Positions 4,996 through 22,275 of a stretch of DNA of 64,000 nt are shown one piece after another. The stretch is from contig QFBQ01000002.1 in NCBI GenBank assembly GCA_003265885.1, positions 2,358 through 66,357 of the forward strand, in the 5' to 3' direction. The number at the start of each line of letters is the position of its first letter. Position 1 is the first letter of the stretch. The DNA is from Candidatus Marinamargulisbacteria bacterium SCGC AG-343-D04 (lineage in GTDB: Bacteria > Margulisbacteria > Marinamargulisbacteria > GCA-2716485 > GCA-002719695). Made by a program: the position numbers and the translations under genes. The notes under the pieces are model-generated. The model ran no database searches. It saw only the letters and a list, made by a program, of their open reading frames with translations, and was not told where the DNA came from.

Positions 4996-6502
4996 TTAAT
5001 AGTTGTAATTGCTCATGTTTTTGAGCCTGATTTGTATTCTTATATAATCTCAGTAAGTTTTTATACGCTAAATCTAACTGTCCATATTGAATACTTTTAA
5101 TATAATGATCTTCAGCTAATTGGGGCTTTTTTTGATACTCAAATATAACACCAGCATTATTAAGAGCCATATCATAGGATTGATTGGGAGATTGTTGAAT
5201 GGAAATCAAAAAATACTCTAAGGCTTTGTCGTATTGCTTTTTTTTGTAATAGTAGACGCCTAAGTTATTAAGCATGACAAAACTCTTTGGTTCATGAATA
5301 AGATCGTTTTTATATAGTTTTTCTTCATTCCCCCAAAAACTATTTCTATGCAGAGTAGTTAGAGATAATAAAATGATTTGAATAAGTAGTAGTGGCAAAA
5401 TAATACGTTTATATTTTTCAAAATAACATTGAATGAGAAAAGTATAAATAATAATAATTCCAAATCCGGCAAAGGACAGCCAATGTTCTCTCAAAGTCGA
5501 GGCCAATGGGATGATAATATGAGTAACCGGCGCTAACCCGAAAATAAACCAGCTTAAGCCTATTATCATCCAGGCTCTATTACTCGATTTTTTTATTAAG
5601 AGAACTAAAGATATTAATAATACTACAAAAAGGCCACTATAGGGGTTTATGATGCTTTTTATGACAGTGTGATATTCCATATGGAGTGGATATGGAAAAA
5701 TAAGTAACTTTAGATATTCGATGATTATGTAAGGTAAGGTGTAGAGTCGTTCAAGAATAGAGGCTTCAGCAATATATGATAAAGATTTTTTGGAAACTGG
5801 GTACATGATGCGTACACATGCATACCCACCATAGATGACTGTATTAAATAGCAGCGTTTTTAGATAGGGAGTTTTAATGAAATAATGATAGATAAGAGCG
5901 ATTATAGGGAGTCCTATAATGTTTTCTTTGCATAAAAGTCCTGTTATAAATAAAAGTGTAATCCATAAGGGATTCCATTTGTTTGTGGATGCTTTGGTTA
6001 TGATTAGCATGATGCTAAATGCACATAGACTATATAAGAGATCTCCCCTACCTGATAAATAGCTTATGTTTTCTATATGAATAGGGTGAAGACAGTATAA
6101 TAATGTTATTAATAATCCTAGGATTCGCTTGAATTTAAACTGAATTAAGAGTAAATAGACAATATAACTATTGAGAATATGTATACTAATACTTGTTAAA
6201 TGAAACCCTTGAGGGTTCATTCCCCAAAGATAATAGTCCAGAATATAACTTGCACTTTGAATGGGCCTATAAAATGAAAGGGCTGTCCATTTTTCGCCAA
6301 AGACGGAGTGAGTAAAAATAGCTGCTATATTTCGAATATCTTTTATAAATGTATTGTTAACAATGATTTCAAGGTCATCCCAAATAAACGGGTGATAAAT
6401 AGTGTTTGCATATATCGTAATAATGGCAATGGATATGGTTGAAAATGCTATGAGCTTTTTGTCAAATAGCATATTTATAGCTTTGATAATTTTATTATTC
6501 AC
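4976..6502 (-). CDS. multi-pass membrane glycosyltransferase-like protein (PMT_2/TMTC-like) with C-terminal TPR repeats
   Basis: 508 aa. The N-terminus FIWDDLEIIVNN...FYRPI followed by about 10 TM segments resembles TMTC/DUF1736-type proteins. The C-terminus NNLGVYYYKKKQYDKALEYFLISIQ...ALNNAGVIFEYQKKPQLAEDHYIKSIQ is TPR-like. The start is either GTG 6502 or ATG 6472. The 3' end overlaps the previous gene tail-to-tail by 20 nt. Confidence 0.65.
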   Translation of the reverse strand: MNNKIIKAINMLFDKKLIAFSTISIAIITIYANTIYHPFIWDDLEIIVNNTFIKDIRNIAAIFTHSVFGEKWTALSFYRPIQSASYILDYYLWGMNPQGFHLTSISIHILNSYIVYLLLIQFKFKRILGLLITLLYCLHPIHIENISYLSGRGDLLYSLCAFSIMLIITKASTNKWNPLWITLLFITGLLCKENIIGLPIIALIYHYFIKTPYLKTLLFNTVIYGGYACVRIMYPVSKKSLSYIAEASILERLYTLPYIIIEYLKLLIFPYPLHMEYHTVIKSIINPYSGLFVVLLISLVLLIKKSSNRAWMIIGLSWFIFGLAPVTHIIIPLASTLREHWLSFAGFGIIIIYTFLIQCYFEKYKRIILPLLLIQIILLSLTTLHRNSFWGNEEKLYKNDLIHEPKSFVMLNNLGVYYYKKKQYDKALEYFLISIQQSPNQSYDMALNNAGVIFEYQKKPQLAEDHYIKSIQYGQLDLAYKNLLRLYKNTNQAQKHEQLQLLINKNYL

Positions 6503-8127: not shown

Positions 8128-9372
8128 TCACTGAAATGGTAAAAGTTTTTCAAACAACTTATTAAAACAGTTTATTAATGAATGTGATGGATCTTGTTTT
8201 TGATGGTGTAAAAAGGCTTTCTTTCCTAAAGATTCAACATGCTTAGGGTTTTGTAGATACTCGTATATTTTTTCTGCTAATTCTTGTGATGAATTTGGAT
8301 CTATAAGATCTCCTGTATTTTGAGGGACTATAGTTTCTAAACTTCCTCCTTCTTTGGCCGCTATTGTAGGTAAACTGTATGAAGCTGCTTCAATAGGAAT
8401 TAAACCCAAAGGCTCCACTCTTGAAACAGATATTACAAAATATGCAGATTTATATAGTAGATCTAACTTGTCATTGCTTAGAAAACCTTTGAAATTTATA
8501 AAAGATAAGACGTCTTGGTTTTTTGCGAAAATTTTCAGCTTTTCATCTAGCTCCCCTGTCCCAATAATATTTACTACAAAATCTTTTGGTTTTAGCTTAT
8601 ATTTTATTTTTAGTTCTTTAATGGCTTTGATGACAATATGAAGGTTTTTAAGCTTTTCTAAACGCGAAATAATGAGAATTTGCTTTTGATTAGTGAGAGG
8701 CTTTTCTTGGTTTTCTTTTTTCTTGTTTTTTAAAATGTTCCCAGGAAAATGTTGCGAGATAGCATCTCGCCCATAAATTTTTTTAACATTTTTTGCCGTA
8801 AATTGACTATTTGCTATCACTTCAGAAATCAAAGTGTTTACAGCGTCATTGTCTTTCTTAATTAGCCATTGCTGACGATTATCTTTTTTATGGCGAGCAT
8901 TTTTGGCTATGATTAAAGGGTTATCTAAAGCGGGGTCAAATTCTAAATTGACTAATCCATTATTAAGTTCTTCTTCATACAAACTTCTTGGCGGTTCATG
9001 GCAACTCCAAATGACCGGTGGGATGTTCTTTCTTTCGCCTTTTGAGGCATAGCTTAGCCATATATTTGCAGGGAAATTATGGCAGTTTATAATGTCATAA
9101 TTCTTTAGTAATGGCCTTATTCTTAAGCCCATAATCCATAAGTTTCGTCGAGCTGTATCATATCCTGGGATAAAGGGAGTTTTGATGGAAATCGTTTTGC
9201 AATGATTCCTATTTAGTTGAGTTTTTACTTCTTTTGAAAAACCGGCTGATATAATATCAACATGATGCCCTTCTTTAATCCATAATTTCGCCATATTTAA
9301 AATAACAACTTCGGCCCCACCTAAAATAGTCATTTTGGGATGTACTATGGCTATTTTGAGAGATTTTTTCAT
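8128..9372 (-). CDS. GT4-family glycosyltransferase
   Basis: 414 aa. The N-terminus is KIAIVHPKMTILGGAEVVILNMA. The C-terminal GT-B motif is SRVEPLGLIPIEAASYSLPTIAAKEGGSLETI (E-x7-E). It is the last gene of the nonulosonic-acid cluster. Confidence 0.8.
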   Translation of the reverse strand: MKKSLKIAIVHPKMTILGGAEVVILNMAKLWIKEGHHVDIISAGFSKEVKTQLNRNHCKTISIKTPFIPGYDTARRNLWIMGLRIRPLLKNYDIINCHNFPANIWLSYASKGERKNIPPVIWSCHEPPRSLYEEELNNGLVNLEFDPALDNPLIIAKNARHKKDNRQQWLIKKDNDAVNTLISEVIANSQFTAKNVKKIYGRDAISQHFPGNILKNKKKENQEKPLTNQKQILIISRLEKLKNLHIVIKAIKELKIKYKLKPKDFVVNIIGTGELDEKLKIFAKNQDVLSFINFKGFLSNDKLDLLYKSAYFVISVSRVEPLGLIPIEAASYSLPTIAAKEGGSLETIVPQNTGDLIDPNSSQELAEKIYEYLQNPKHVESLGKKAFLHHQKQDPSHSLINCFNKLFEKLLPFQ

Positions 9373-9379
9373 TCTAATA

Positions 9380-10411
9380 TCATGAAATCATTTCTAGATT
9401 TAATGGCGTTGCTTTTTTAATGTCTTTCTTAGCCTTCTTATTAAGCATATCTTCAAAATATTTTGGAGCTAAACCATCTCCTGGTCGAATGATTTTAATA
9501 TTGTCTTTTGTAAGAAACTCGCCTTTTTTAATATCTTTTACTACATAAATGGACCGTCTGAAGAGTTTTGATTTTTCTTCATTTTTAGATCCGCCGAACG
9601 ATACTTTACCTAATGCTAAATAGGCTTTTTCGACTTCCTCGACAAGTATTTTCATTTCCGCTGGTTCCATTGAAAACGCAGAATCTACGCCTCCTTCATC
9701 TCGTGATAAGGTGAAGTGTTTTTCTATTACTTTAGCTCCTAAAGCAATACTTGCTATTGCAACACCAATTCCTAATGTATGATCTGATAAACCTACGTCC
9801 ACATTAAATTGTGATTGTAGTTGGGGTATTGTTTTAAGATTGCAATCTTTTGGCGATGCTGGATATGTACTAGTACATTTTAAAAGGTATAGATTTTTGT
9901 TTCCATTTTCTTTTGCTGTGGTAACCATATCATGAATTTCTGATTCTGTAGCCATGCCTGTTGATATAATAAGTGGTTTTCCTGTTTGAGCGACTTTTTT
10001 AATTAATGGTAAATGTGTGTTTTCAAATGATGCGATTTTATAGGCCGGGACATTCAGTGATTCTAAAAAATCAACGGAGGTATCATCAAATGGTGTTGAA
10101 AAGCAATCAATTTGAAGATCTTTGCACTTTTTAAATATGGGTTCGTGCCATTCCCATGGAGTATGAGCTTTTTGATAAAGGTCATAGAGGGTTTCTCCAT
10201 GCCATAAACTATTTGGATCATTTATCTTAAATATACCTTCATTTGATTGAATGGTCATGGTATCTGCGGTATATGTTTGTATTTTTATAGCATCAACGCC
10301 AGTTTCAGCTGCAGCTTCTATAATTTTCATAGCTCTATCAAGTGATTGGTTGTGATTCCCTGACATTTCAGCAATAATATAAGGTTTTTCTAGATTATTT
10401 AGTTTAGTCAT
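9380..10411 (-). CDS. pseI: pseudaminic acid synthase (NeuB family with C-terminal SAF domain)
   Basis: 343 aa. Motifs are KPYIIAEMSGNHNQSLDRAMKIIEAAAETGVDAIKIQTYTADTMT and LSDHTLG, with a SAF-like C-terminus (RSIYVVKDIKKGEFLTKDNIKIIRPG). It is clustered with pseB, pseC and pseG. Confidence 0.88.
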   Translation of the reverse strand: MTKLNNLEKPYIIAEMSGNHNQSLDRAMKIIEAAAETGVDAIKIQTYTADTMTIQSNEGIFKINDPNSLWHGETLYDLYQKAHTPWEWHEPIFKKCKDLQIDCFSTPFDDTSVDFLESLNVPAYKIASFENTHLPLIKKVAQTGKPLIISTGMATESEIHDMVTTAKENGNKNLYLLKCTSTYPASPKDCNLKTIPQLQSQFNVDVGLSDHTLGIGVAIASIALGAKVIEKHFTLSRDEGGVDSAFSMEPAEMKILVEEVEKAYLALGKVSFGGSKNEEKSKLFRRSIYVVKDIKKGEFLTKDNIKIIRPGDGLAPKYFEDMLNKKAKKDIKKATPLNLEMIS

Positions 10412-10421
10412 ACGCTTTATT

Positions 10422-11942
10422 TTATATTATTTTTTTTCTAAATAATACTACTCTTTCTTTATTTTTATTATTGTGTTTATCGATAGTGACTTTTATTATA
10501 CTACGGTACTTTTTAAAACCTAGCTCTTTAAATGTATAAATTGATGATACGTTTGTTTCTTTTATTTCAGCTTTTATATATTCACACTCATTCCACTTTC
10601 TTTTTATTTTTATCAATCCTTCTTCTATGAGCACCTTCCCTAAACCGAGTCCTCGAAATTTTTTAGATATATATATATTTGCAATAATTGTTTTCTTTTG
10701 TTTCTCAAATCTTACTTGGCCTACAGTTTCGTCGTTGATTTTAAAAATATACATTTTACATCGTGTTGATTGTATTTTTCTTTTGAGCCATGTTTGATGT
10801 TCTTCCATCGAAATTTGTCTAGAATTAAAAGATTGTTGTCTTACTTCTGGATCGTTTATTAATTGTAGTAATATTAATTTATCTTTTAAATTTACGCTTT
10901 GAATACGAAGTTTAGGTTTTAAAATTAATTCTAGTTGAAGATGTTTTTTTAATTTAGATTTATGACCTATTTTTATATTCTGAATAATGGATGATCTTTT
11001 TTTTGAGCTCTTTAACTGATTAAAATACTTAATCGTTAATTGTGGATCTTTTTTTTCTTGAGTAAGAGCTAACGCTTCTTTTTTCAAATACTCAAGTAAG
11101 AATTTTTGATTTTCATAGTATTTAATAATAATTGATGGGGTTCGAAAAAGTAGAAGCTCATGTACAGTAGTTCCGCAGGCGGATATGGCGATATCAGTCT
11201 TTTTTAATAGAGTTGAATAATTATCGCTTGTGATATTGTTATGGATCTTTATAGTGCAATTCATTTCTTTTGAGTACTCTTCGATACTTTTTAGATTTGG
11301 GTTAATGGGGCTTATTAAAACGTGTACGATTAGATTTTGATTTATTTTGATATTCATATTCAAAATTTTTAGGGTAGCAAGAGTTTCATTGTTGCTATCT
11401 CCAGCCCCAAATACAACTAAAATATTTCTAATTTCTTTATTTATTTTGATATTTTTTTTATTTAATCTTAATTTTCGTCTAATTGCGGCAAATTGTGGAC
11501 CTAGTAGAAGTTTTGTATAACTCTCAGATGAGTATAGAGTATGCTCTTGAGTGTTTTGATTAATAATAATATCAGATACGAAATGATAAGGTGCGTAATC
11601 ATCAACACTTATGAGTTTGAAATCTGCCTTTTTTATTTTTTTTTGGTAATCTGTATGAAATTGGTAACCATCTAAGATTATCCATTTACAGCGTTCTTTT
11701 TTTGCAATTTCAATTGTGAATTCTGCATCTGACTCAATTGTCTTATCTGTTTTTTTAGGCCAAGAGATATAATTGATATTTTCACTTTTAAGCGTATCTA
11801 TTAACCCCTTACTCTCTGTTTGTGTTAATATAAAAGGATCTAAGTTCAAGTCTTGTAAATGTTGAGCAAAAGCGATTTGTCTTATTAAATGACCAGCTCC
11901 CATTTCTTTAGAGGCATCTGCTCTAATTAATATTTTTTCCAT
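10422..11942 (-). CDS. pseG: fusion of PseG-like UDP-sugar hydrolase and PseH-like GNAT N-acetyltransferase
   Basis: 506 aa. The N-terminal half is MEKILIRADASKEMGAGHLIRQIAFAQHL (PseG/SpsG-type). The C-terminal ~170 aa form a GNAT fold (VGQVRFEKQ...YISKKFRGLGLGKVLIEEG...NVSSIYTFKELGFKK). The start codon shares one nucleotide with the upstream stop (TAATG). Confidence 0.8.
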   Translation of the reverse strand: MEKILIRADASKEMGAGHLIRQIAFAQHLQDLNLDPFILTQTESKGLIDTLKSENINYISWPKKTDKTIESDAEFTIEIAKKERCKWIILDGYQFHTDYQKKIKKADFKLISVDDYAPYHFVSDIIINQNTQEHTLYSSESYTKLLLGPQFAAIRRKLRLNKKNIKINKEIRNILVVFGAGDSNNETLATLKILNMNIKINQNLIVHVLISPINPNLKSIEEYSKEMNCTIKIHNNITSDNYSTLLKKTDIAISACGTTVHELLLFRTPSIIIKYYENQKFLLEYLKKEALALTQEKKDPQLTIKYFNQLKSSKKRSSIIQNIKIGHKSKLKKHLQLELILKPKLRIQSVNLKDKLILLQLINDPEVRQQSFNSRQISMEEHQTWLKRKIQSTRCKMYIFKINDETVGQVRFEKQKKTIIANIYISKKFRGLGLGKVLIEEGLIKIKRKWNECEYIKAEIKETNVSSIYTFKELGFKKYRSIIKVTIDKHNNKNKERVVLFRKKII

Positions 11943-13243
11943 TATCTAACTTTAAATAACGTTTCAAGTTTTGAACAATTTAACATGTTTGAAATAGAAT
12001 TATTCGATAATCCCTTTAATACTTTATCAAAGTAATGTTCATAGGCTTTCATTAGAACATTAATATGTAATTTTGTATGTGCATAACTTATATTGTGAGA
12101 ACCTAAAGTTAAAATCCCTTTTCCAAACATTTCTTGCAATAACAATGTTTTTAATTCAAGTGAGGAGGAGTTCCTGCTATCTGCAATTTGCAAAAAAGAC
12201 CATGGAGCCAAGCCCGTTACAGAAAATATGTTTTTAAGTTTTTTTTGTTTGATTAATTCACCAAGTTCATTTTGAAGTAAGTTTCCAGTTTCCCATATTT
12301 TTTTAACTATAGGTTTTTCTTTTAGTTTATTTAATACAACTTTTGCGGCAGCTAAAGATAATGTTTCTCCACTAAATGTTCCTGAAAAAAAGATTTCTTC
12401 CATTAACATCATAATATCTTTTTTTCCGACAATTGCAGATAACGGGTACCCATTAGCAATTCCTTTTCCAAAAGTTGCTAAATCAGGAGTTACGTTAAAA
12501 TATTCTTGAGCTCCTCCATTTGCATATCTAAATCCAGTAATTGTCTCATCAAATATAAGAACACAATTATTTCTCTTTGCAATCTCCTGAACTTTTTGCA
12601 AGAAATCATCTTTAGGTTCTGTAATATTCATAGGCTCTAAAATAATTCCTGCAATTTTTTTAGGATGCTTATTAAAAATAGATTGTAACGATGAGATATC
12701 GTTATATTTAAATGTATGTGTCAATGCTTTGGTGGATTCTGGAATACCTAAATCTCTACTTGTAGATCCAATATACCAATCTTGCCAGCCATGATATCCG
12801 CATACTGCGATATGTTCTTTATTAGTGTAGGCTCTTGCAAGACGAATTGCTGCAGAAGTAGCGTCTGTTCCGTTTTTACCAAATCGAACCATTTCTGCAC
12901 AAGGTACCATTGCACAGATGAGTTCAGATACCTCACACTCTAAAGTTGTGGATAAGGAAAAGATAGTTCCTTTTTTTAATTGCTTTTGAACCTCTCTTGT
13001 AACATCTGGGTCATTATACCCTAGCGTAACTGAAGCTAAAGAATTTATAAAATCGATATATTCGTTACCATCAATATCATAAAGAAGGGCCCCGTTTGCA
13101 TGTGATGCAAAAAAAGGCGAAACCCCTATAGGAAATTGGGTTTTACTTTTACTAAATGTTTGAGCCCCTAAGGGAATGGTTTTTTCCGCTCTTTTTAGCC
13201 ATTTTTCTGATTTTGAATATCGTTGAATATCTTCTTTAGTCAT
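11942..13243 (-). CDS. class-III (glutamate-1-semialdehyde aminomutase-like) PLP aminotransferase
   Basis: The motifs FSKSKTQFP...GNEYIDF, GTDATSAAIRLARAYT, IFDETITGFR and TFGKGIANGYPLSA (PLP lysine context) are typical of the family. I place the start at ATG 13243 (MTKEDIQRY...). That gives an 8-nt overlap with the upstream stop, whereas the track start at 13273 would give 38 nt. Confidence 0.8.
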   Translation of the reverse strand: MTKEDIQRYSKSEKWLKRAEKTIPLGAQTFSKSKTQFPIGVSPFFASHANGALLYDIDGNEYIDFINSLASVTLGYNDPDVTREVQKQLKKGTIFSLSTTLECEVSELICAMVPCAEMVRFGKNGTDATSAAIRLARAYTNKEHIAVCGYHGWQDWYIGSTSRDLGIPESTKALTHTFKYNDISSLQSIFNKHPKKIAGIILEPMNITEPKDDFLQKVQEIAKRNNCVLIFDETITGFRYANGGAQEYFNVTPDLATFGKGIANGYPLSAIVGKKDIMMLMEEIFFSGTFSGETLSLAAAKVVLNKLKEKPIVKKIWETGNLLQNELGELIKQKKLKNIFSVTGLAPWSFLQIADSRNSSSLELKTLLLQEMFGKGILTLGSHNISYAHTKLHINVLMKAYEHYFDKVLKGLSNNSISNMLNCSKLETLFKVR

Positions 13244-14018
13244 ATTTATTATCTTTTTTATTATACCCTTCATTTCGAGGGATTTCTTTATTTATTTCCA
13301 ATAGTTCGGGCTTTTTCTCTAGGAGCTGAATAATGTCTCTAGTAGAAAAATTAGGATCTTTTACGTATAAAGCTTCATAAATTTTTGTGATGAACTCCAA
13401 ATCTTTTGCCTCATCTAATGTCCATCTATAATGAGAATAGTCTTCTTCTTGTTGAAAATTGCCGCATGAAAACAGATCTTTATTATCCCTAATGAATGGA
13501 GTGACATGTTCTCTTTCCATAGGTTTCTTCGCTTCTAAATAAGCTTTTTTTAATGCTGAAAATGTCATGACTTCAACATCCAGTCCATCAGGAAAGGTTT
13601 CAGGGAACCCATTACTTAGGTAATCAAATGATTGTGTTTTAAAATAGTGAATAGCATAGTCTATTAAATCAGGGTCATGTAACGGACAATCCCCTGTTAG
13701 ACGAACAATAATGTCTACTGAGTTACTGGATAAGGCGGCATGATAATATCTATCTAAAACATCGCTAGGGTGGCCACGAAAACATGTGATATTGCACTTT
13801 TTGCATATTTCTTCTAAGTAATTATCTTGCTCTAAATTTGTTGTTGCTACTAATAAATGATGTTCTGATTTTATTCGTTTCAGTCTTTCGATCATGAGCT
13901 CAAGAGTACTTTTGTTATTAATAATTTTTTTTCCCATTTTCCCCGGAAGTCGAGAGGACCCCATTCTTGCTTGAAGAATTATAAGTGTTTTTGATTTTTT
14001 TTGAACTAAATTATTCAT
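13236..14018 (-). CDS. SpsF-like cytidylyltransferase (probable CMP-nonulosonic acid synthetase of the cluster)
   Basis: 260 aa. Motifs are LIILQARMGSSRLPGKM and VRLTGDCPLHDPDLID, as in SpsF/FlmC-type acylneuraminate cytidylyltransferase-family proteins. No canonical PseF (PARGGSKR type) is present elsewhere in the cluster. Confidence 0.7.
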   Translation of the reverse strand: MNNLVQKKSKTLIILQARMGSSRLPGKMGKKIINNKSTLELMIERLKRIKSEHHLLVATTNLEQDNYLEEICKKCNITCFRGHPSDVLDRYYHAALSSNSVDIIVRLTGDCPLHDPDLIDYAIHYFKTQSFDYLSNGFPETFPDGLDVEVMTFSALKKAYLEAKKPMEREHVTPFIRDNKDLFSCGNFQQEEDYSHYRWTLDEAKDLEFITKIYEALYVKDPNFSTRDIIQLLEKKPELLEINKEIPRNEGYNKKDNKYD

Positions 14019-14136
14019 GATTTCTATTATATGTGTATTGTGTTTGATTGTCCAAATTAGTAGAAAACTTTTTTCTGAAAATGGTGAGATTTATGAAGAA
14101 ATGATATTATACATTAAAAATATTAAGGAACTATTT

Positions 14137-15216
14137 ATGAATCTAATCTATAAAAATGATCCCTCATTTGATGATTTGTTTGAAAGTATTCAAATTACAT
14201 TTTCTAATATGACTTATGCGTATACTACATTGATTCAAAACTATTTTTCTATATACTCTAATATTAAAGAGAATCTTTCATTTATTATAGAAATTGATAA
14301 TAAACCGGTAGCATTCTGTCCATTATTTTTGGAAATTAATAATTCTCAAAACATGTTTACTTTATCTCAGAGTTTTTTACCTGCCCCACTTTTTTTTCCG
14401 GGATTGGGACAAAAAATAATGAATAAAGTTACAACTTTATTAATGGCCACTATTGATGAGTTAGCATTTCGCTATGATGTAACTAAGCACTGTGTAAGAA
14501 TTGACCCTTTACTTGATTATGATGGAGTTTCATCTAACTGGCTCCTTAAATATGGATATCTTGGAACATCTATTCATACTCAAATTTTAGATTTAAGAAA
14601 ACCTTTATCTGATATTTTTTCAAAAGTAAGTAAGGGCCATAAAAGTGATATTAAAAAGGCTCAAAAGCATTTTTCTGTTTATGTTTGGGATAGGACAAAT
14701 GCTGATTTTGAATGTTTTGAAAATTACAGAAAACTTCATCATAAAGCTGCAGGGAAAGTGACTAGACCTCTAGAAACTTTTTCCCTTCAGTTTGAAGGTA
14801 TTAAGCAAGATAAAGCTATTCTAGTTGGTATAAAATATAAAGAGGACTGGATTGCATATTCGTATTTTTCTCATGTAAATAATTGTATTTATTATGGTTC
14901 TGCTTCGGATGATCCTGACTTTTCAGAATTACCAGCTTCTTGTGGGCATCTGCAGTTATGGACTGCTATAGAGTATTATCATCAGCGAGGGTTTCATTTT
15001 CTGGAGACAGGCTGGCAACATTATGGGCCTCAGCTTTTAGATTATCCGTCTGCTAAGGAAATTCATATTTCAAAATTCAAAAAAGGTTTTGGGGGAGAAA
15101 CCTTGCCTTTTTTTAGAGCAGTAAAATACTACTCTGAGAAAGCTTTCATTGAAGATGTCGATACTTTCAAACAAAAACAACTGGAGTTTATCAATTCCAC
15201 TCAGAAGGATTTGTGA
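14137..15216 (+). CDS. FemAB-family-like (GNAT-fold) aminoacyl/acyl transferase
   Basis: The central and C-terminal regions (KGHKSDIKKAQK...NYRKLHHKAAGK...ILVGIKYKEDWIAYSYF...IYYGSASD...LQLWTAIEYYHQRGFHFLETG) resemble FemA/FemB/FemX-type transferases. This is a weak motif-level call. I moved the start to ATG 14137, which has an AAGGAA RBS 8 nt upstream. It is the only + strand gene inside the cluster. Confidence 0.55.
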   Translation: MNLIYKNDPSFDDLFESIQITFSNMTYAYTTLIQNYFSIYSNIKENLSFIIEIDNKPVAFCPLFLEINNSQNMFTLSQSFLPAPLFFPGLGQKIMNKVTTLLMATIDELAFRYDVTKHCVRIDPLLDYDGVSSNWLLKYGYLGTSIHTQILDLRKPLSDIFSKVSKGHKSDIKKAQKHFSVYVWDRTNADFECFENYRKLHHKAAGKVTRPLETFSLQFEGIKQDKAILVGIKYKEDWIAYSYFSHVNNCIYYGSASDDPDFSELPASCGHLQLWTAIEYYHQRGFHFLETGWQHYGPQLLDYPSAKEIHISKFKKGFGGETLPFFRAVKYYSEKAFIEDVDTFKQKQLEFINSTQKDL

Positions 15217-16114
15217 TTTGTGGATATAAAAATGGGGCTATTTTTTTTCGAATGTTTTCGCAATCTTTTAAACTAAGTGTTTTCCTATCAAACAACTTTA
15301 TATTTTGCCTCAGTTGATTTTTGTTGTCTACGCCAATAACTAATGGGCATTGAATTGTATGTGCAATGTCAAATGCAAGTTCCTTTCTTGACTTATTAAG
15401 TTCATAAGATACTTTATTCCATTCATTGGATAGTTGAAAGGCGTTATTCATCTTCTTTTTTACATCATCTGGGCTCATTAATAATAATCCTTGCAAAAAA
15501 ATACTTCTTATAAAACATAATGTATTTTTTTGAATGGCTAATTGTTGAATTTCTTTTGTAAGAAATCGTTGATCCCAGGCATTAAAAGGCATTTGTATAA
15601 AATCTATTTTGGGATTATTAATGGCTGTTTTAGCGGCCTCTATACTATAAAGGGAAACGCCTGCAAACTGAATTAATTTTTCTTCTTTAGCTCTATCAAT
15701 GACAGGTTGAATGTGTTTCCACAGATCCAACCAAGTTTCATCATGCGCCATTATTCCCCATAGAGGAGCTCCAAGTCTATTTACTGATTTTTTAATGGAG
15801 TGGTATAGTTCTTCTCCATTGTTTGGATCTAATTGAGGATCCCACTTGCTAATGACGTTGACTTGTTTTTGTAGAGATTTTTTTTTAAAAGCTTCTCCTA
15901 ATAAAGTCTCTGAGTCCCCATAAGCTTGGGCTGTGTCAAAAAAGCATATCCCATGATCTATAGCATCTTCGACTATTTGAAAAATCTCTTTATTTTTGGG
16001 TTTTCCAGACGTATTTGAAATGCCATAGTCTAATCCTAACTGAACAGTTCCTAAGACAAATTGGGGGATTTCAATCCCTCGCCATTGAATTGACCTAATC
16101 AATCTTTTAGACAT
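15191..16114 (-). CDS. aldo/keto reductase
   Basis: 307 aa. Motifs LGTVQLGLDYG and FFDTAQAYGDSETLLGEAF indicate an AKR fold. It overlaps the pseC stop by 16 nt and the convergent FemAB-like gene by 26 nt. Confidence 0.8.
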   Translation of the reverse strand: MSKRLIRSIQWRGIEIPQFVLGTVQLGLDYGISNTSGKPKNKEIFQIVEDAIDHGICFFDTAQAYGDSETLLGEAFKKKSLQKQVNVISKWDPQLDPNNGEELYHSIKKSVNRLGAPLWGIMAHDETWLDLWKHIQPVIDRAKEEKLIQFAGVSLYSIEAAKTAINNPKIDFIQMPFNAWDQRFLTKEIQQLAIQKNTLCFIRSIFLQGLLLMSPDDVKKKMNNAFQLSNEWNKVSYELNKSRKELAFDIAHTIQCPLVIGVDNKNQLRQNIKLFDRKTLSLKDCENIRKKIAPFLYPQITNPSEWN

Positions 16115-17241
16115 TTTATAGCTGAAACTACGGTTTTAATATCAGTTTCAGACATTTTCGGAAAAATAGGTATACTGAGAGCTTTACTATAATACTCTTC
16201 ACAGTTCGGAAAGTGCTTTTGTTTATACCCTAATTGTTTATAATAAGGCTGCTTATAAACAGGGATATAATGTACTTGAGACCCTATACCCTTTTCTTTT
16301 AACTCTTGCATAACTTCTTGACGTGTCTTTCCAATCATTTGATAGTCAATAGATGTAACATATAAGTGATAGGAAGATTCATCAGTTTTTGTGTCTAAAA
16401 TGTTGACCCCATCAATATTATTAAACTCTTTATTATATATACCTGCAATATGTTGACGTTTTTGTGTGAATGTCTTTAATTTTTTTAGTTGTGAAATTCC
16501 TAGAGCTGCTTGTATATCTGTTAATCTATAGTTATATCCTAAAAGTTGCATTTCATAATACCAAGGACCTTCATTATCTTTTAGTTTACTTTCTTCTTTT
16601 GTAATACCATGACTTCTCAACATCACTAATTTATCATAGAGTTCTTTGTCATTTGTTGTTATTGCCCCTCCTTCTCCTGTTGCGATAGGTTTTACAGGAT
16701 GAAAGCTAAAGGTACACATATCGGAAAACTCACAGTTTCCAATGGGTTTTCCATTATAACTTCCTCCAAGAGCATGGCTTCCATCTTCAATGATTTTTGT
16801 GTCGAATTCTTCTGCAATGCGATGAATTTTTTTCATATTACAACTTTGACCAGCAAAATGAACTGGAATAATAACTCGAGTATCTTTTGAAATAAGCTTG
16901 ACTATATTGTTGGGATCAATATTTCCTGTTTTATTATCTATATCTGCAAATAAAACTTTGCTTCCACAATATAATGCTGAATTACTGGTAGCAACAAATG
17001 TATTAGGCGTAGTGATGACGTTATGAGTGTTATTGGTTTTGCACGCAAGCATTGCTAAGTGTAGTGCGGCAGTTCCGTTAGAAACAGCTACTGCATATTT
17101 AGCTCCCGTAAACTCACATAGAGCTTCTTCAAATTCTTTAACTTTTGGCCCTTGAGTTAAATAAGGGCTTCTTAAAGTGTTTATAACTGTCTGAATATCT
17201 TCTTCATCAACACTTTGACATGAATATGGTAAGAAAGACAT
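16099..17241 (-). CDS. pseC: DegT/DnrJ/EryC1-family aminotransferase, PseC-like (UDP-4-amino-4,6-dideoxy-N-acetyl-beta-L-altrosamine transaminase)
   Basis: 380 aa. FLPYSCQSVDEEDIQTVINTLRSPYLTQGPKVKEFEEAL...AVSNGTAALHLA matches the PseC N-terminal pattern. SFHPVKPI gives the PLP lysine context. It lies directly downstream of pseB. Confidence 0.85.
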   Translation of the reverse strand: MSFLPYSCQSVDEEDIQTVINTLRSPYLTQGPKVKEFEEALCEFTGAKYAVAVSNGTAALHLAMLACKTNNTHNVITTPNTFVATSNSALYCGSKVLFADIDNKTGNIDPNNIVKLISKDTRVIIPVHFAGQSCNMKKIHRIAEEFDTKIIEDGSHALGGSYNGKPIGNCEFSDMCTFSFHPVKPIATGEGGAITTNDKELYDKLVMLRSHGITKEESKLKDNEGPWYYEMQLLGYNYRLTDIQAALGISQLKKLKTFTQKRQHIAGIYNKEFNNIDGVNILDTKTDESSYHLYVTSIDYQMIGKTRQEVMQELKEKGIGSQVHYIPVYKQPYYKQLGYKQKHFPNCEEYYSKALSIPIFPKMSETDIKTVVSAIKCLKD

Positions 17242-17256
17242 GTTATATGAGTATCA

Positions 17257-18237
<981 letters not shown>

Positions 18238-18323
18238 TCATTAATCCAATTATAGTTTTGAGTGTTAAAATTAATTATATTAGTATAGCTTTAAATATAT
18301 ATAAAATCTAGTAAACGACAGTG

Positions 18324-19724
18324 TTATATTGAAGCTAAAATGGAATTAACTACTAGTTTTGTATTATATGATTCATCAAAACAAGTGAGCAAGCTTTTAT
18401 AATCCCTATCTACAAGTCCGTCTCCAAAGTGCTCTGTTAGAGATCTTACTTCTTTTTGAATATCAATGTCATTATTCTTCCATGATACTACTTCTTCATA
18501 AGTCACTTTATTTTTATACCAAAAAACACCAGGCAAGTTGTTGTACCATGCATAACCAAATGTTATTAATGGTTTTTTCATTTGTATCGCTTCCCACCCA
18601 GTATTTCCTGATGAGAGTGCTACGCATTGACAATTTTTGATTAGTTCAAAAGAGCTAAATTTTCCAGAAATAAGTGTGGTATTTCGGATGTTATTTAGCC
18701 GTTCAAAAAAGCCAGTGCTTCTCATGGATTCCATTTGCTTTGGGTTTTCTTTAATATAAATTTTTACATTCTTAGGTATCCATCGTGATACCGTCTCAAT
18801 AATTTTCACTTGCTCTGTATAGTTTCCCCCTAAAGTTGCGGATGATAATTCGGGTTGGTATGGTAATGGTATGTAGACATAAGGCACTGAAAGGTCAACC
18901 TTGTTTTTACTGTAGGTTTTCATATTTTGTATATAGGTTTTTAATATAGGTATTCTAAATCTCCTGCCATTGGCATCTAAGAAATGTGCTATGTGGCTAA
19001 AATTTCCTATTAAGAAAGAAATAATGAGTTTTATTTTATTTTCTTTAAGCAAGCTTTCGAGAGAAAAGTTTTTTTTCAATTCTTTTAATGAAAACACGGC
19101 ATCTTCAATGTTAGTCATATAGAAAAGTTTTGCTGGTTTTCCTGAAAATTCATACTTATAGTTACTTTTTTTGTATAACTTAGGTCTTGTTTGAGTAATA
19201 TTTCCAAATTCTTCAATGGAGTTGATAATAATAAATTTTCCAGGGAAAATAGTTTGCATACATAATCGTGTTTTTATGTTTAGTATTTTAGCCATTTTAT
19301 AAAGTACAAAATCGGCTCCTTCATGAAAAATATTTGCATGAATAACTAAATTAATGTTTTCACGAGTTAATTTTTCATAAAAAAAATGAACTAACCGATA
19401 GAATAAGTAGATATCATCATCTACAGATCTTGAAATAACTTTTTCATTTGCACAAAAGTTTATTTGATGACGCACCTGCATTAATAAAAATTCTTCTAAA
19501 AACTTTTGGGCCTTTATTATTATATCCTCAGGAGCTAGAGGGGTTTTTTCGATTTTTTGAAATATAAATAAGTCATCGTAGTAGTATATTAATGCCTTTG
19601 ACCAAGGAATCTTGTGGCGAGTTTGCTTTACCCATACTTTAATATTTAGATCACCCTTCTTTTCTAATTCCCTGAGAATATTAGGATTACATTTATTATC
19701 AAAGCCCCAAGCAAAAACATTCAC
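18324..19724 (-). CDS. putative GT-B-like polysaccharide/nonulosonic-acid transferase, paralog 1
   Basis: 466 aa with a GTG start overlapping the upstream stop (GTGA). It shares with its neighbour the motifs HEG.D.VLY, Y[VI][YP][FL]P[LY][HQ].QPELS..TLG, IY[IV]KENP.Q.ES, SG.[TA]GWE and KKP...FG.AWY. This layout resembles capsule-biosynthesis-type GT-B transferases, but I cannot name the family. Confidence 0.45.
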   Translation of the reverse strand: MNVFAWGFDNKCNPNILRELEKKGDLNIKVWVKQTRHKIPWSKALIYYYDDLFIFQKIEKTPLAPEDIIIKAQKFLEEFLLMQVRHQINFCANEKVISRSVDDDIYLFYRLVHFFYEKLTRENINLVIHANIFHEGADFVLYKMAKILNIKTRLCMQTIFPGKFIIINSIEEFGNITQTRPKLYKKSNYKYEFSGKPAKLFYMTNIEDAVFSLKELKKNFSLESLLKENKIKLIISFLIGNFSHIAHFLDANGRRFRIPILKTYIQNMKTYSKNKVDLSVPYVYIPLPYQPELSSATLGGNYTEQVKIIETVSRWIPKNVKIYIKENPKQMESMRSTGFFERLNNIRNTTLISGKFSSFELIKNCQCVALSSGNTGWEAIQMKKPLITFGYAWYNNLPGVFWYKNKVTYEEVVSWKNNDIDIQKEVRSLTEHFGDGLVDRDYKSLLTCFDESYNTKLVVNSILASI

Positions 19725-21124
19725 TGTTGAATTTTTTTTCGAAGAATATCTATCAAAGCTTTTTGATTATTTGATTCATTGTAACTGGAATAATTAGCGG
19801 TATATGCTTCATAAAATATTCCGTCAAAGAACTTTGATGTAATAGAAGCTATTTCTTTTTTTAATAAGTTCAGATCTATTTTTGTTGTAGTGATGCTTTC
19901 ATAAGTTGGATTATTCCTAATATGAAAAATCCCAGGCAAAGGTTTATACCAAGCTAATCCAAAAATTAATGCTGGTTTTTTTAATAATATAGATTCCCAC
20001 CCTGCTGTTCCAGATATGGTAGCCGTGAACTCTGCATTTTTAATTAAAGATATCGAATCTATTTCGTGATCTAAAAGAACTACATTTTTGATTTGGAATA
20101 ATCTATCAAAAAAATCTATAGGACGATGAGATTCCCATTGATAAGGATTTTCTTTAACATAAATTTTTACATTTTCAGGGATCAGTCCAGATAATTCTTC
20201 AATGGGTCTGAGTTGGTCGTAGTATTTGTCTCCTAAAGTATCTGTAGATAATTCAGGTTGTAAATGTAAGGGGAAATAAACATATTTGTCGTTCTTATTT
20301 ATTTTTTTTGTTGCATATTTTTTGTATAATTCAATATACTTTTTTAACTTTGTAATTCGTGATCCAGGTCCACGATTATTTAAAACACTAGATATCGCTT
20401 TATATTCTCCTAAAATCATAAATTTAATTAATTTCCATTTATGTTTTTTTATATACTCTTTAAATGTATAGTTGTTCTTCAACTCATCTAACTGAGTCTC
20501 CGCAGAGATTGTTTTCTTCATATAAAATGGTTTTTGTAAAAAAGTATCAATATTTATATCGATTGGTTTAGATACAATTGGCATGTTTTTGTCTGACATT
20601 TCAATATCTTCAATATTATTGATACATAGACATTTGTTTGGGAAAATTGTCTGATATAACAACAGCGTTTTAACTTTTAAAGCTTTTGCTACGATATATA
20701 AAACATAATCTGGTCCTTCGTGTGGAAAATTGTTAAATATTACAAGATTAATTTTTTTGCTCTTTAGAATCGAATAAAAATAATGAATTAATCGATAATA
20801 CAAGTGGTAATCATCGTATATATTGCGAGTTACAACGCATTCTAGAGGGTATTTATGAATTTGATGGCGAGAATTCATAACCATAAAACGAAACCTACAG
20901 GGCTCTAATTCATCAAATAGATCTAACGGAGGGTTGTTATCTTCAATTTTAAATTTATTTTGGATATATAAGTCGTAATAGAGGTCTGTTTTTTCACACT
21001 TTAACTTTGGTGTCTCGCTACAATCATGGATCCAATATTTTGGATCAATGATCTTTTGTTTTTTTAGTTCAATTAAAACATTTATTAATAAGGGACTGCT
21101 AAATCCATGTATTGCTGCATTCAT
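19721..21124 (-). CDS. putative GT-B-like polysaccharide/nonulosonic-acid transferase, paralog 2
   Basis: 467 aa, colinear with and clearly homologous to 18324-19724 (same motif set, for example YVYFPLHLQPELSTDTLG, ISGTAGWESILLKKPALIFGLAWY). It is the first gene of the minus-strand cluster. Confidence 0.45.
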   Translation of the reverse strand: MNAAIHGFSSPLLINVLIELKKQKIIDPKYWIHDCSETPKLKCEKTDLYYDLYIQNKFKIEDNNPPLDLFDELEPCRFRFMVMNSRHQIHKYPLECVVTRNIYDDYHLYYRLIHYFYSILKSKKINLVIFNNFPHEGPDYVLYIVAKALKVKTLLLYQTIFPNKCLCINNIEDIEMSDKNMPIVSKPIDINIDTFLQKPFYMKKTISAETQLDELKNNYTFKEYIKKHKWKLIKFMILGEYKAISSVLNNRGPGSRITKLKKYIELYKKYATKKINKNDKYVYFPLHLQPELSTDTLGDKYYDQLRPIEELSGLIPENVKIYVKENPYQWESHRPIDFFDRLFQIKNVVLLDHEIDSISLIKNAEFTATISGTAGWESILLKKPALIFGLAWYKPLPGIFHIRNNPTYESITTTKIDLNLLKKEIASITSKFFDGIFYEAYTANYSSYNESNNQKALIDILRKKIQQ

Positions 21125-22228: not shown

Positions 22229-22275
22229 TAATTTTCTTGCAAGTTTCTTTGAAAAACTTTCGTAATTCTATTGTC

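Follow-up and report, generated by a model that had tools for sequence, protein, structure and literature searches.

The arrangement of genes encoding an aldo/keto reductase (AKR), an SpsF-type cytidylyltransferase, and a class-III aminotransferase (AT3) is already known, without a function, from Aeromonas group-I flagellin glycosylation islands, the L. pneumophila Sg6/12 LPS loci, and a Vibrio; in Vibrio B9-25K2, AKR and SpsF were reported to be fused (PMC7371886). The Aeromonas group-I islands follow the order pseB-pseC-AKR-pseF-class III aminotransferase-pseG-(pseH)-pseI (Forn-Cuni et al. 2021, PMC7874193), and the island of A. hydrophila AH-1 (subgroup IA) comprises only pseB-pseC-AKR-pseF-AT3-pseG-pseI (PMC7874193). 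The flagellin of this strain carries a single sugar resembling pseudaminic acid (Pse), with a mass of 403 Da versus 316 Da for Pse5Ac7Ac (PMC4691044). The L. pneumophila Sg6/Sg12 locus contains genes for a GNAT, PseG, a GSA-aminomutase-like aminotransferase, an SpsF-like 'acylneuraminate cytidylyltransferase', an AKR, DegT, CapD, a 'capsule polysaccharide biosynthesis protein', and NeuB (PMC3694923). For Caulobacter crescentus, six genes in a synthetic operon, with FlmC as the last enzyme, were enough to obtain FlmG-dependent glycosylation of flagellin in E. coli (PMC7591256). The Clostridium difficile type-B flagellin locus includes a FemAB-like gene (CDR20291_0244), an ATP-grasp gene (0245), and an aminotransferase gene (0247), and its glycans were termed 'sulfonated peptidylamido-glycans' (PMC5207246). 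Our literature search found no assay of any enzyme of the AKR/AT3/Fem set.

Organization of the Pse-type island

The window, i.e., the whole stretch of 64,000 nucleotides that was analysed, belongs to the marine Candidatus Marinamargulisbacteria bacterium SCGC AG-343-D04 and contains a 13 kb Pse-type island at positions 8128-21124. The island is composed of genes encoding two KpsC-like proteins, PseB, PseC, an AKR, a Fem-like protein, an SpsF/FlmC-type cytidylyltransferase, AT3, a PseG-GNAT fusion, PseI, and a GT4 glycosyltransferase, of which the Fem-like gene lies on the plus strand and all the others on the minus strand. Homology shows that the six core Pse functions are covered by predicted PseB, PseC, PseG-GNAT (PseH-like), and PseI proteins together with the SpsF/FlmC-type protein replacing PseF. 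The flanking Pse genes had been called correctly by an earlier, sequence-only reading, as the UDP-GlcNAc 4,6-dehydratase (inverting) PseB (17257-18222; TIGR03589, 502.3 bits, cut-off 407.75), the UDP-4-amino-4,6-dideoxy-L-AltNAc transaminase PseC (16099-17241; TIGR03588, 528.7 bits, cut-off 423.5), the UDP-sugar hydrolase PseG (10422-11942; TIGR03590, 187.1 bits, cut-off 153.55), and the pseudaminic acid synthase PseI (9380-10411; TIGR03586, 507.4 bits, cut-off 340.25) all scored above the equivalog cut-offs. PseG is fused to a PseH-like GNAT N-acetyltransferase domain that reached 49.2 bits with TIGR03585, under the cut-off of 93.1, and shared 23% identity with FlmH (E=1e-9); the same fusion was also found in locus L086. 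The GT4 glycosyltransferase gene (8128-9372; PF00534, E=2.2e-30) forms one end of the island. The other is formed by two adjacent KpsC/KpsS-like (Capsule_synth, Pfam PF05159) paralogues with 39% mutual identity, paralogue 1 (18324-19724; E=7.7e-8) and paralogue 2 (19721-21124; E=3.7e-7), which are candidate CMP-ulosonate (CMP-Pse) glycosyltransferases; paralogue 1 weakly resembled KpsC, a beta-Kdo transferase (8fux, E=4e-4).

Between pseC and pseG-pseH, the sequence-only reading had placed three genes, and the ORF check located all of them at the coordinates given; a fourth, the SpsF/FlmC-type gene (13236-14018, minus strand; CTP_transf_3, PF02348, E=1.7e-26), had been missed. Its product is a putative stand-in for PseF (CMP-Pse synthetase). 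Aligned along its entire length with C. crescentus FlmC, as translated from the eLife supplement, it showed 38% identity (E=7e-44), and it also matched PDB 6oew (E=2e-46); it is not a canonical PseF, and the PseF model gave no match. Just upstream, a promoter-like site (TGGACA-17-TATAAT; 14026-14054, minus strand) matched the consensus at 11 of 12 positions, in a region where the total of such sites was not above shuffle expectation, and might allow the minus-strand operon to restart past the inverted Fem gene. The AT3 gene (11942-13243; Pfam Aminotran_3, PF00202, E=4.9e-54) had as its top NCBIfam match the GSA-aminomutase-like PRK06209 (383.7 bits, under the cut-off of 486), and NCBI likewise takes the start that gives 433 aa. 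The AKR gene (15191-16114; Pfam Aldo_ket_red, PF00248, E=1.6e-22) does overlap both neighbours, as had been noticed earlier, by 16 nt with pseC and by 26 nt with the converging 3' end of the Fem-like gene. Both enzymes appear catalytically intact, with the PLP lysine K260 of AT3 invariant and the AKR tetrad D60/Y65/K90/H124 retained by 90% or more of 44 orthologues.

When compared to the Aeromonas group-I polar flagellin islands (PMC7874193), the window shows PseB, PseC, AKR, the SpsF-type 'PseF', AT3, PseG, GNAT, and PseI in the same order. In contrast, the Aeromonas islands have neither a Fem-like gene nor KpsC-like transferases and are linked to flagellin and Maf, while in the window PseG and GNAT are fused and flagellar genes were not found near the island. 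The L. pneumophila Sg6/Sg12 LPS O-antigen locus shares with the window the AKR-SpsF-AT3 module, a KpsC-like gene, and a surface-polysaccharide setting, but it carries HisH/HisF, an LPS biosynthesis protein, and an extra acetyltransferase where the window has the Fem-like gene (PMC3694923). A gene similar to KpsC-like paralogue 1 was present in the Legionella locus as well as within related clusters (L017). The HisH/HisF genes and the LPS biosynthesis protein of the former presumably constitute an acetimidoylation set. The reconstituted C. crescentus Flm pathway (FlmA, B, H, D, NeuB, FlmC; PMC7591256) resembles the island in its SpsF-type FlmC and FlmH-type GNAT and differs in having no AKR, AT3, or Fem protein; since these six enzymes work without an AKR or AT3, neither is needed for CMP-Pse itself.

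The AKR-SpsF-AT3 module and the Fem-like protein

A total of 80 AT3-centred loci, including one of A. cavernicola (L080), was compared, and the 58 long ones (at least 17 kb) were used for gene-presence counts. PseI was detected in 54/58, PseB in 52/58, the SpsF-type gene in 51/58, PseC in 49/58, and the AKR in 45/58, whereas a GNAT was detected in 17/58, many AT3 clusters being without a detectable PseH. The order AKR-SpsF-AT3 was found in 49 of the 80 loci, and SpsF-AT3 fusion proteins exist. Orthologues of AT3 were 47-65% identical across phyla, and its relatives at E<1e-60 filled more than 7,900 protein clusters, the best 120 of which were 59-65% identical. Comparative genomics shows that the predicted AKR, SpsF-type protein, and AT3 form a three-gene module that lies within Pse clusters in most bacterial phyla. 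The AKR and AT3, part of a combination that the sequence-only reading could not match to any described pathway, are thus neither unusual nor new as a pair: AT3 matches occurred in at least 596 species-representative genomes, and this common core module had been described before. In several loci (L086, L087, L009, L011, L074, L079, and others), a Gfo/Idh/MocA dehydrogenase fills the slot of the AKR beside SpsF and AT3. Such use of two unrelated oxidoreductase families with the same aminotransferase speaks for plain C-OH/C=O chemistry coupled to the transamination.

The Fem-like gene is inverted between the AKR and SpsF genes, at 14137-15216 on the plus strand. It is annotated as hypothetical DID78_00450 from 14017, but the start at 14137 is favoured because an AAGGA Shine-Dalgarno sequence lies 8 nt upstream and homologues are 350-362 aa long. 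The ORF had no Pfam match of its own. The double-GNAT Fem fold expected by the sequence-only reading appeared in a confident AF2 model (pLDDT 96.4), whose top Foldseek matches were Weissella FemX (E=1.7e-14), Sbb17/Sba18, and S. aureus FemX and FemA. The protein resembles the aminoacyl-tRNA-dependent, amide-forming enzymes FemX/FemA/MurM and Sbb17/Sba18 in fold (TM about 0.62-0.76), in its FK(K)GFGG motif (FKxGFGG), which aligns with Sbb17 and S. aureus FemX, and in an Arg that aligns with FemX R211; its profile matched FemX at E=2.5e-11. It differs from them in sequence, with an identity of 12-14%, and in its nonulosonic-acid context, as opposed to peptidoglycan or antibiotic synthesis. The Sbb17 structure was solved as a complex with streptothrisamine, which we take to be an amino-sugar compound. 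Together with the UDP-linked sugar-peptide on which FemX acts, this complex provides a precedent for a sugar-bound amine as the acceptor.

The sole NCBIfam model matched by the window protein and its homologues was TIGR04421 (FemAB_IMCC1989, a hypothetical equivalog), with 88.9 bits for the window protein against a cut-off of 250. A bona fide member (264.8 bits) is encoded directly after PseI in the AKR-SpsF-AT3 cluster L028. Judged by sequence similarity, the window protein belongs to a sister subfamily of TIGR04421 with 155 representatives at E<=1e-30. Among nine neighbourhoods of Fem homologues, from Margulisbacteria, Clostridia, and unclassified metagenomic contigs, CTP_transf_3 was present in 9/9 and NeuB/PseI in 8/9. 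Fem-like genes occurred in 8 of the 80 AT3-centred loci (about 10%) and also in the AT3-free clusters L001, L004, and L005, so the Fem protein is not strictly dependent on the AKR-SpsF-AT3 module. The neighbourhood survey showed a strong association of the AKR, AT3, and Fem families with nonulosonate synthases elsewhere, as the sequence-only reading had expected. In two loci (L002 and L087), an ATP-grasp gene adjoins the Fem gene. The C. difficile type-B locus likewise has its FemAB-like gene near a sugar aminotransferase gene, but its glycan is not a nonulosonic acid and its ATP-grasp gene has no counterpart in the window (PMC5207246).

Proposed tailoring of pseudaminic acid and alternative explanations

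Our preferred reading, to which we give a probability of roughly 0.45, is that the AKR and AT3 add an extra amine to Pse or CMP-Pse, that the Fem-like protein aminoacylates a sugar amine, and that the product is a tailored Pse. Once PseI has formed Pse, the NAD(P)-dependent oxidoreductase would act on Pse or CMP-Pse and turn a free secondary hydroxyl, most likely that at C8, adjoining the C9 methyl, with C4 as the alternative, into a ketone, which the PLP enzyme AT3 would transaminate to a third amino group. The logic is analogous to Kdo8N formation in Shewanella, where, at or before the stage of CMP activation, the dehydrogenase KdnB and the aminotransferase KdnA replace an ulosonic-acid hydroxyl by an amine. 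The enzyme families differ, since KdnB is an iron-dependent alcohol dehydrogenase, and the Kdo8N route acts on the primary C8-OH of Kdo. The Fem-like enzyme would then move an aminoacyl group from aminoacyl-tRNA either to the new third amine or to N7 of the UDP-4-amino intermediate; as a PseH-like GNAT is present, N7 is probably acetylated, which leaves the acceptor uncertain. An extra amine and an aminoacyl group had been proposed by the sequence-only reading, and the proposal is consistent with findings such as the Gfo/Idh/MocA enzymes that replace the AKR beside AT3, while the atom aminated, the amine aminoacylated, and the use of tRNA are what we infer. Against an oxidative role, AKRs are usually reductive in vivo and favour NADPH. 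No triamino nonulosonic acid was found in the searchable literature. Because the nominal mass of the AH-1 sugar is odd, its nitrogens must be odd in number, and a three-nitrogen ion, C17H30N3O8+, differs in mass by no more than 2 mDa from the formula that the authors ranked first, which suggests three nitrogens rather than one, one remaining compatible. The replacement of OH by NH2 changes the mass by -1 Da and does not by itself explain the +87 Da of this sugar.

This mass difference, which requires a substituent bigger than an amine, also speaks for a rather unlikely explanation in which the AKR and AT3 leave the sugar ring alone and make a small-molecule side chain that replaces a Pse N-acetyl group and is attached by the Fem-like protein or another transferase. 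In such a route, a hydroxy acid could arise, through an aldehyde intermediate, from an omega-amino acid or amino-aldehyde, with the path from GABA through succinic semialdehyde to 4-hydroxybutyrate, or a glutamate-semialdehyde derivative, as instances. The closest characterised relatives of AT3 are GSA aminomutase, GABA/ornithine-type omega-transaminases, and GntE, aldehyde reduction is a typical AKR activity, PseH is undetected in many AT3 clusters and absent from the Aeromonas subgroup IA island, and hydroxybutyryl, glyceroyl, and glutamyl groups are known as N-acyl groups on Pse/Leg. However, minimal clusters of seven or eight genes have no ligase, CoA-/ACP-activating enzyme, or extra acyltransferase, and the SpsF-AT3 and AKR-SpsF fusions link both enzymes to the cytidylyltransferase step and not to precursor supply. 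Gfo/Idh/MocA enzymes typically are dehydrogenases of sugars, and their presence in the place of the AKR is easier to reconcile with sugar chemistry; the structurally characterised relatives of AT3 also include sugar C-6' aminotransferases and an aminopentol aminotransferase. The pair might instead run in reverse, with AT3 turning an amine into a ketone and the AKR reducing it to an alcohol, or epimerise a carbon, giving a deaminated or epimeric nonulosonic acid such as a 7-hydroxy or C4/C8-epimeric form. The reductive preference of AKRs favours this course, as do the racemases and epimerases among AT3 relatives (isoleucine 2-epimerase, GenB-type 6'-epimerase) and the fact that the Legionella loci with the module are from non-Sg1 serogroups, in whose strains epimeric legionaminic acids occur. 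We nevertheless hold it to be decidedly improbable, because removing the amine that PseC has just installed would be wasteful, epimerisation needs one enzyme whereas AKR and AT3 are conserved together, and the AH-1 mass suggests three nitrogens over one, even if one is still compatible.

As regards the Fem-like protein, the fold search also returned acetyl-CoA-dependent tandem GNATs, namely the clavulanate tandem GNAT, the C. acetobutylicum glucosamine N-acetyltransferase, and VipF (E about 1e-9 to 1e-10), and homologues carry Pfam Acetyltransf_6, so that a tRNA-free, acyl-CoA-dependent N-acyltransferase acting on a sugar amine has to be considered. The eleven best structural matches and every significant sequence-profile match are, in contrast, aminoacyl-tRNA-dependent enzymes, the FKxGFGG motif is common to the protein, Sbb17, and FemX, and the CoA-binding P-loop motif Q/RxxGxG/A is absent, which makes this function rather unlikely. 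It is highly improbable that the gene encodes an ordinary peptidoglycan cross-bridge enzyme placed here by chance and that the cluster makes plain Pse5Ac7Ac. The closest solved structures are indeed peptidoglycan Fem enzymes and the gene lies on the strand opposite to the operon, but identity to FemX is just 12-14%, the GC content of the gene agrees with that of the island, all nine Fem homologue neighbourhoods are nonulosonic-acid or flagellin-glycosylation loci, TIGR04421-type Fem genes come after PseI in Proteobacteria, and AH-1 shows that AKR/AT3-type clusters do not give plain Pse5Ac7Ac.

Under the preferred reading of an aminated and aminoacylated sugar, the KpsC-like transferases would use the tailored, CMP-activated sugar to decorate a surface glycan, and the predicted product is a Pse derivative and not plain Pse5Ac7Ac. 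The three genes had been regarded as non-canonical accessories, a description that suits the comparatively rare Fem-like gene and not the common AKR and AT3. As comparative genomics shows, the putative AKR and AT3 are not lineage-specific additions and belong to the core of one of the commonest types of Pse cluster. The Fem-like gene is, on the same genomic comparison, a rarer accessory of this cluster type, and its FemX-like product probably links an amino acid to the sugar.

Layout and core pathway of the Pse island

The ORF listing and HMM scans placed the genes for pseudaminic acid (Pse) in a compact island (8128-21124), in which every gene except one lies on the minus strand. In order of transcription, the island is composed of two KpsC/KpsS-like Capsule_synth paralogues, PseB, PseC, an aldo/keto reductase (AKR, 15191-16114(-)), the inverted Fem-like gene (Fem, 14137-15216(+)), an SpsF/FlmC-type cytidylyltransferase (SpsF, 13236-14018(-)), a class-III aminotransferase (AT3, 11942-13243(-)), a PseG-GNAT fusion (10422-11942(-)), PseI, and GT4. 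The sequence-only reading had described AKR, Fem, and AT3 as three accessory enzymes that could tailor the nonulosonic acid or its acceptor; these ORFs and their overlaps were confirmed, with 16 nt shared by PseC and AKR and 26 nt by the converging 3′ ends of AKR and Fem. No intrinsic terminator was found between these two converging genes. A near-consensus sigma-70-like site, TGGACA-17-TATAAT (14026-14054(-)), is situated just upstream of the SpsF gene and could restart the minus-strand operon past the inverted Fem gene, as far as its sequence indicates; promoter-like sites in this region were no commoner than in shuffled sequence.

PseB and PseC (502.3 and 528.7 bits against curated cut-offs of 407.75 and 423.5), as well as PseG and PseI (187.1 and 507.4 bits against 153.55 and 340.25), all exceeded the thresholds of their equivalog models. 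PseG is part of a single 506-aa protein whose GNAT domain scored 49.2 bits on the PseH model TIGR03585 (cut-off 93.1) and showed 23% identity (E=1e-9) to the functional analogue FlmH from the Flm pathway of Caulobacter crescentus; by sequence, this domain is PseH/FlmH-like, though below the PseH cut-off. The same fusion was observed in another Fem-containing cluster, locus L086 (7406-8908). The model for canonical PseF, TIGR03584, was absent among the NCBIfam matches of the window. The sequence-only reading missed that the cytidylyltransferase encoded at 13236-14018 differs from canonical PseF: it matched CTP_transf_3 only, plus the distant KdsB and spiro-SPASM models and the Leptospira-type structural-genomics entry 6oew. 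It was 38% identical over its full length (E=7e-44) to C. crescentus FlmC, whose sequence was obtained by translating flmC out of the synthetic operon given in the supplement to PMC7591256. FlmC, stated to show no homology to PseF, is the final enzyme of a six-gene set that is enough for E. coli to glycosylate flagellin in an FlmG-dependent manner (PMC7591256). The PseF function is probably supplied by the SpsF/FlmC-type CTP_transf_3 protein, so that the six Pse steps would be covered by PseB, PseC, PseG, PseI, the PseH/FlmH-like GNAT, and SpsF, with no need for AKR, AT3, or Fem.

The tandem Capsule_synth/KpsC-like paralogues upstream of pseB (18324-21124(-)) are 39% identical to each other, match the domain weakly, and show weak similarity to KpsC, a CMP-Kdo-dependent transferase. 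Their sequences suggest that they are probably CMP-Pse-dependent glycosyltransferases. Genes resembling them occur within related Pse clusters (the Fem-bearing P0040 contig and the AT3-bearing locus L017) and in the Legionella Sg6 locus. According to Pfam scans, the island is flanked by housekeeping genes, namely menaquinone genes, a DNA glycosylase, leucine biosynthesis genes, CysRS, and glutamine synthetase, and no flagellar genes were detected among the flanking ORFs scanned; the G+C content is about 34% across the window. A gap of about 1.6 kb holding two unrelated genes separates the island from a polytopic membrane protein of 508 aa (4976-6502(-)), which has TPR repeats at its C terminus and could have a glycan-handling or O-glycosyltransferase-like role. 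A small leucine-rich-repeat protein, unusual for a free-living bacterium, is encoded about 1.1 kb from the island (22237-23028(+)). Further away, two large tandem ORFs of 726 and 667 aa (31772-33952 and 34134-36137, both (+)) have a DXD 'Gly_transf_sug' region as their sole Pfam match, and a second, unusually long (461 aa) protein with an aldo/keto-reductase domain (41685-43070(-)) adjoins an acetyl-CoA synthetase-like gene.

A widespread AKR-SpsF-AT3 module

Both AKR and AT3 look catalytically intact from their sequences. AT3 matched PF00202 (Aminotran_3) with 184 bits, and D232 and the PLP lysine K260 were invariant in the alignment, while AKR matched PF00248 with 80.4 bits and its tetrad D60/Y65/K90/H124 was kept in at least 90% of 44 orthologues. 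A HemL role in haem synthesis was ruled out for AT3, given that its scores were under the equivalog cut-offs (277.2 against 527.3 bits for HemL TIGR00713 and 383.7 against 486 for PRK06209) and that its orthologues are found in Pse clusters, not with hem genes.

AT3 matched 7,993 protein clusters at E<1e-60, the best 120 of which were 59-65% identical despite belonging to different phyla. At least 596 genome stretches were confirmed by the genome scan, and the matches listed included Bacteroidota, Acidobacteriota, Elusimicrobia, Alpha-, Beta-, Gamma-, and Deltaproteobacteria, Bacillota, Actinomycetota, Leptospirales, Cyanobacteria, and Pelagibacteraceae. The window proteins were searched by tblastn against 80 retrieved AT3-centred loci from other genomes, and genes were counted in those 58 that span 17 kb or more. 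PseI was present in 54/58, PseB in 52/58, SpsF in 51/58, PseC in 49/58, and AKR in 45/58 of these; the expectation that the accessory families would lie beside nonulosonate synthases elsewhere was borne out. AKR-SpsF-AT3 was the gene order in 49 of the 80 loci; typically, the operon ran PseB-PseC-AKR-SpsF-AT3-PseG-(GNAT)-PseI. The order in the window, PseB-PseC-AKR-[Fem, inverted]-SpsF-AT3-PseG/GNAT-PseI, agrees with the definition of the Aeromonas group-I module, whose genes are adjacent and located between pseBC and pseG/pseI. Across phyla, AT3 was 47-65% identical to the window protein, above PseC (about 36-52%) and about level with PseB and PseI; at the sequence level, this conservation suggests a tightly constrained substrate.

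The three genes are also physically tied together. Fusion proteins of SpsF and AT3 of about 680 aa occur, and an AKR-SpsF fusion is reported in Vibrio B9-25K2 (PMC7371886). In several loci where AKR was not detected, a Gfo/Idh/MocA oxidoreductase adjoins SpsF/AT3: L009, L011, L074, L079, L086, and L087, where it sits exactly in the AKR slot, and L052, L058, L066, and L075. The two oxidoreductases are interchangeable, and this substitution, like the two kinds of fusion, links AKR, SpsF, and AT3.

The arrangement is already described in the literature, without explanation. The same gene set is listed in the LPS loci of Legionella pneumophila Sg6/Sg12 (PMC3694923), and the minimal island of Aeromonas hydrophila AH-1 (subgroup IA) has only pseB, pseC, AKR, pseF, AT3, pseG, and pseI. 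The pairing of AKR with the aminotransferase, part of the combination that the sequence-only reading could not match to any described pathway, is very common and documented in Aeromonas, Legionella, and Vibrio loci. Our locus is a Fem-bearing variant of this very common, already documented type of Pse cluster; the earlier observation is confirmed and its interpretation partly supported. The polar flagellin of AH-1 carries one single Pse-like sugar of 403 Da, compared with 316 Da for Pse5Ac7Ac (PMC4691044). From the odd nominal mass we, rather than those authors, infer an odd number of nitrogens, and C17H30N3O8+ (404.2027), with three nitrogens, is within 2 mDa of the formula that they ranked first (404.2046). 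As regards the AH-1 substituent, only this nitrogen-parity argument and the formula check are defensible from the mass, and specific structures are speculation. Our literature search returned no biochemical role for the AKR-, AT3-, or Fem-type genes of Pse or nonulosonic-acid clusters, and nothing linking nonulosonic acids to aminoacyl-tRNA transferases or triamino sugars; a match in a Thaumarchaeota paper proved irrelevant.

The Fem-like protein and its genomic neighbourhoods

The Fem product is 100% identical to the annotated hypothetical protein DID78_00450 of Candidatus Marinamargulisbacteria bacterium SCGC AG-343-D04. The public annotation begins this gene at 14017 (399 aa), 40 codons too early, adding the stretch 14017-14136(+); the ATG start at 14137 is favoured because an AAGGA Shine-Dalgarno sequence is located 8 nt upstream and homologues are 350-362 aa long. 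Pfam returned no match for the window protein at E≤0.001, including FemAB (PF02388) and Acetyltransf_6 (PF13480), families present in many of its homologues, and it scored 88.9 bits on TIGR04421, under the cut-off of 250. A PDB search with the single sequence gave only noise; matches came from a 60-sequence profile, which recovered FemX of Staphylococcus aureus (2.5e-11) and of Weissella (about 6e-6), as well as Sbb17 (6.8e-7), an aminoacyl-tRNA-dependent peptide synthase. The Fem/GNAT fold suspected by the sequence-only reading was supported by the AlphaFold model (pLDDT 96.4, pTM 0.92), in which Fem is predicted to consist of two tandem GNAT-like domains in the Fem arrangement. In the Foldseek comparison with the PDB, Weissella FemX (1ne9) ranked first (E=1.7e-14, TM 0.64/0.68), followed by Sbb17/Sba18 (Sbb17 also as its streptothrisamine complex), S. 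aureus FemX and FemA, and, further down, acetyl-CoA tandem GNATs and aminoacyl-phosphatidylglycerol synthases.

Residue K315, within the motif FKKGFGG, was invariant in 60 homologues, and the aligned counterparts of this motif are FKLGFGG (Sbb17) and FKKVWG (S. aureus FemX); the corresponding C-terminal Phe-Lys motif of Weissella FemX contains the catalytically essential K305. Likewise, R210 aligns with FemX R211, which presumably contacts the UDP pyrophosphate. The acetyl-CoA P-loop motif [QR]xxGx[GA] was absent from Fem. Motifs and model together make a tRNA-dependent mechanism appear more likely than a CoA-dependent one. Among 1.84 billion proteins, the Fem subfamily counts 155 representatives at E≤1e-30 and is therefore small. 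Recent foreign insertion of the gene was rejected (GC 0.316, compared with 0.28-0.34 in its neighbours), as was a peptidoglycan role, on the evidence of the homologue neighbourhoods.

These neighbourhoods comprised nine independent homologue loci, including the window. A CTP_transf_3 gene was present in 9/9 and NeuB/PseI in 8/9, while an AT3 orthologue occurred in 6/9, namely L002, L086, L087, the two contigs P0006 and P0040, and the window itself. The architecture of the window is nearly matched on the P0040 contig, where the order is PseB-PseC-Capsule_synth-AKR-CTP_transf_3-AT3-Fem-PseG-GNAT-DUF1810-NeuB followed by the PLP_IMCC1989 and LIC12162 genes. In L086, which shares the PseG-GNAT fusion, Fem comes directly after PseI, whereas clostridial homologues are found in flagellin-Maf islands with a Gfo/Idh/MocA and DegT pair and two CTP_transf_3 genes. 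Among the AT3-centred loci, 8/80 contained Fem-like genes, including the Janthinobacterium locus L028, where a true TIGR04421 member (264.8 bits) immediately follows PseI. An ATP-grasp ligase adjoins Fem in L002 and L087, and a PIG-L deacetylase is encoded in L001, L002, and the P0006 contig. LIC12162-family transferases (TIGR04331/PF27859) and the putative aminotransferase PLP_IMCC1989 (TIGR04422) often accompany Fem, as in L002 (11068-16836), P0040, P0006, and L087. Radical-SAM/B12 enzymes, ATP-grasp ligases, PIG-L deacetylases, and formyltransferase-like genes recur in Fem-containing clusters, and by gene content these companions look like a larger nonulosonic-acid tailoring toolbox.

A proposed amination route and its significance

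AT3 is paired with either of two NAD(P) oxidoreductase families that are unrelated to each other, and both partners show physical and genetic links to the cytidylyltransferase of the last step. These pairings are most simply read as a conversion of C-OH to C=O and then to C-NH2 on Pse or CMP-Pse. The oxidoreductase (AKR or Gfo/Idh/MocA) would oxidize a hydroxyl of Pse or CMP-Pse, and AT3 would convert the resulting ketone into an amine, a logic similar to that of Kdo8N formation. Following the carbons through the pathway, we know of only two hydroxyls, at C4 and C8, that are free after PseI; oxidation at C8 gives a methyl ketone, a typical omega-transaminase substrate. In the window, L086, and Janthinobacterium-type clusters, N5, whose acetyl is carried over from UDP-GlcNAc, and N7 are expected to be acetylated, and no other amine-forming enzyme was detected, which makes the AT3-derived amine the most economical acceptor for Fem; alternatively, Fem could act on N7 of the PseC product.

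We consider it unlikely, at roughly one chance in five, that the module makes an undescribed triamino nonulosonic acid (8- or 4-amino-Pse) to which Fem, in about one tenth of clusters including this one, adds an aminoacyl or peptidyl group from aminoacyl-tRNA. The main weaknesses of the amination model are that AKRs are usually biased towards reduction, that the literature contains no known triamino nonulosonic acid, and that the additional 87 Da of the AH-1 sugar calls for more than an amination. Mass spectrometry could easily miss a triamino nonulosonic acid, since the acetamidino form would be isobaric with it.

Flagella, capsules, and LPS are coated with Pse and other nonulosonic acids related to it, sugars that shape motility as well as phage and immune recognition. 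The AKR/aminotransferase pair is among the most widespread Pse-cluster components without an assigned role, with hundreds of species carrying it, among them Aeromonas, Legionella, SAR11-type Pelagibacteraceae, Bacillota, and Cyanobacteria, and AH-1, the sole analysed strain with the minimal version of the module, produces the 403-Da derivative. Assigning a role to the module would allow thousands of genes now called 'glutamate-1-semialdehyde aminomutase' and 'aldo/keto reductase' to be re-annotated and could bring to light Pse derivatives of a new class. If Fem uses aminoacyl-tRNA, tRNA-dependent amide formation would extend beyond peptidoglycan and antibiotics to cell-surface sugars, in what would be the first case of a sialic-acid-like sugar being tailored with the help of tRNA. 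The interest therefore lies in the widespread module and a plausible new use of Fem-type enzymes more than in this single window.
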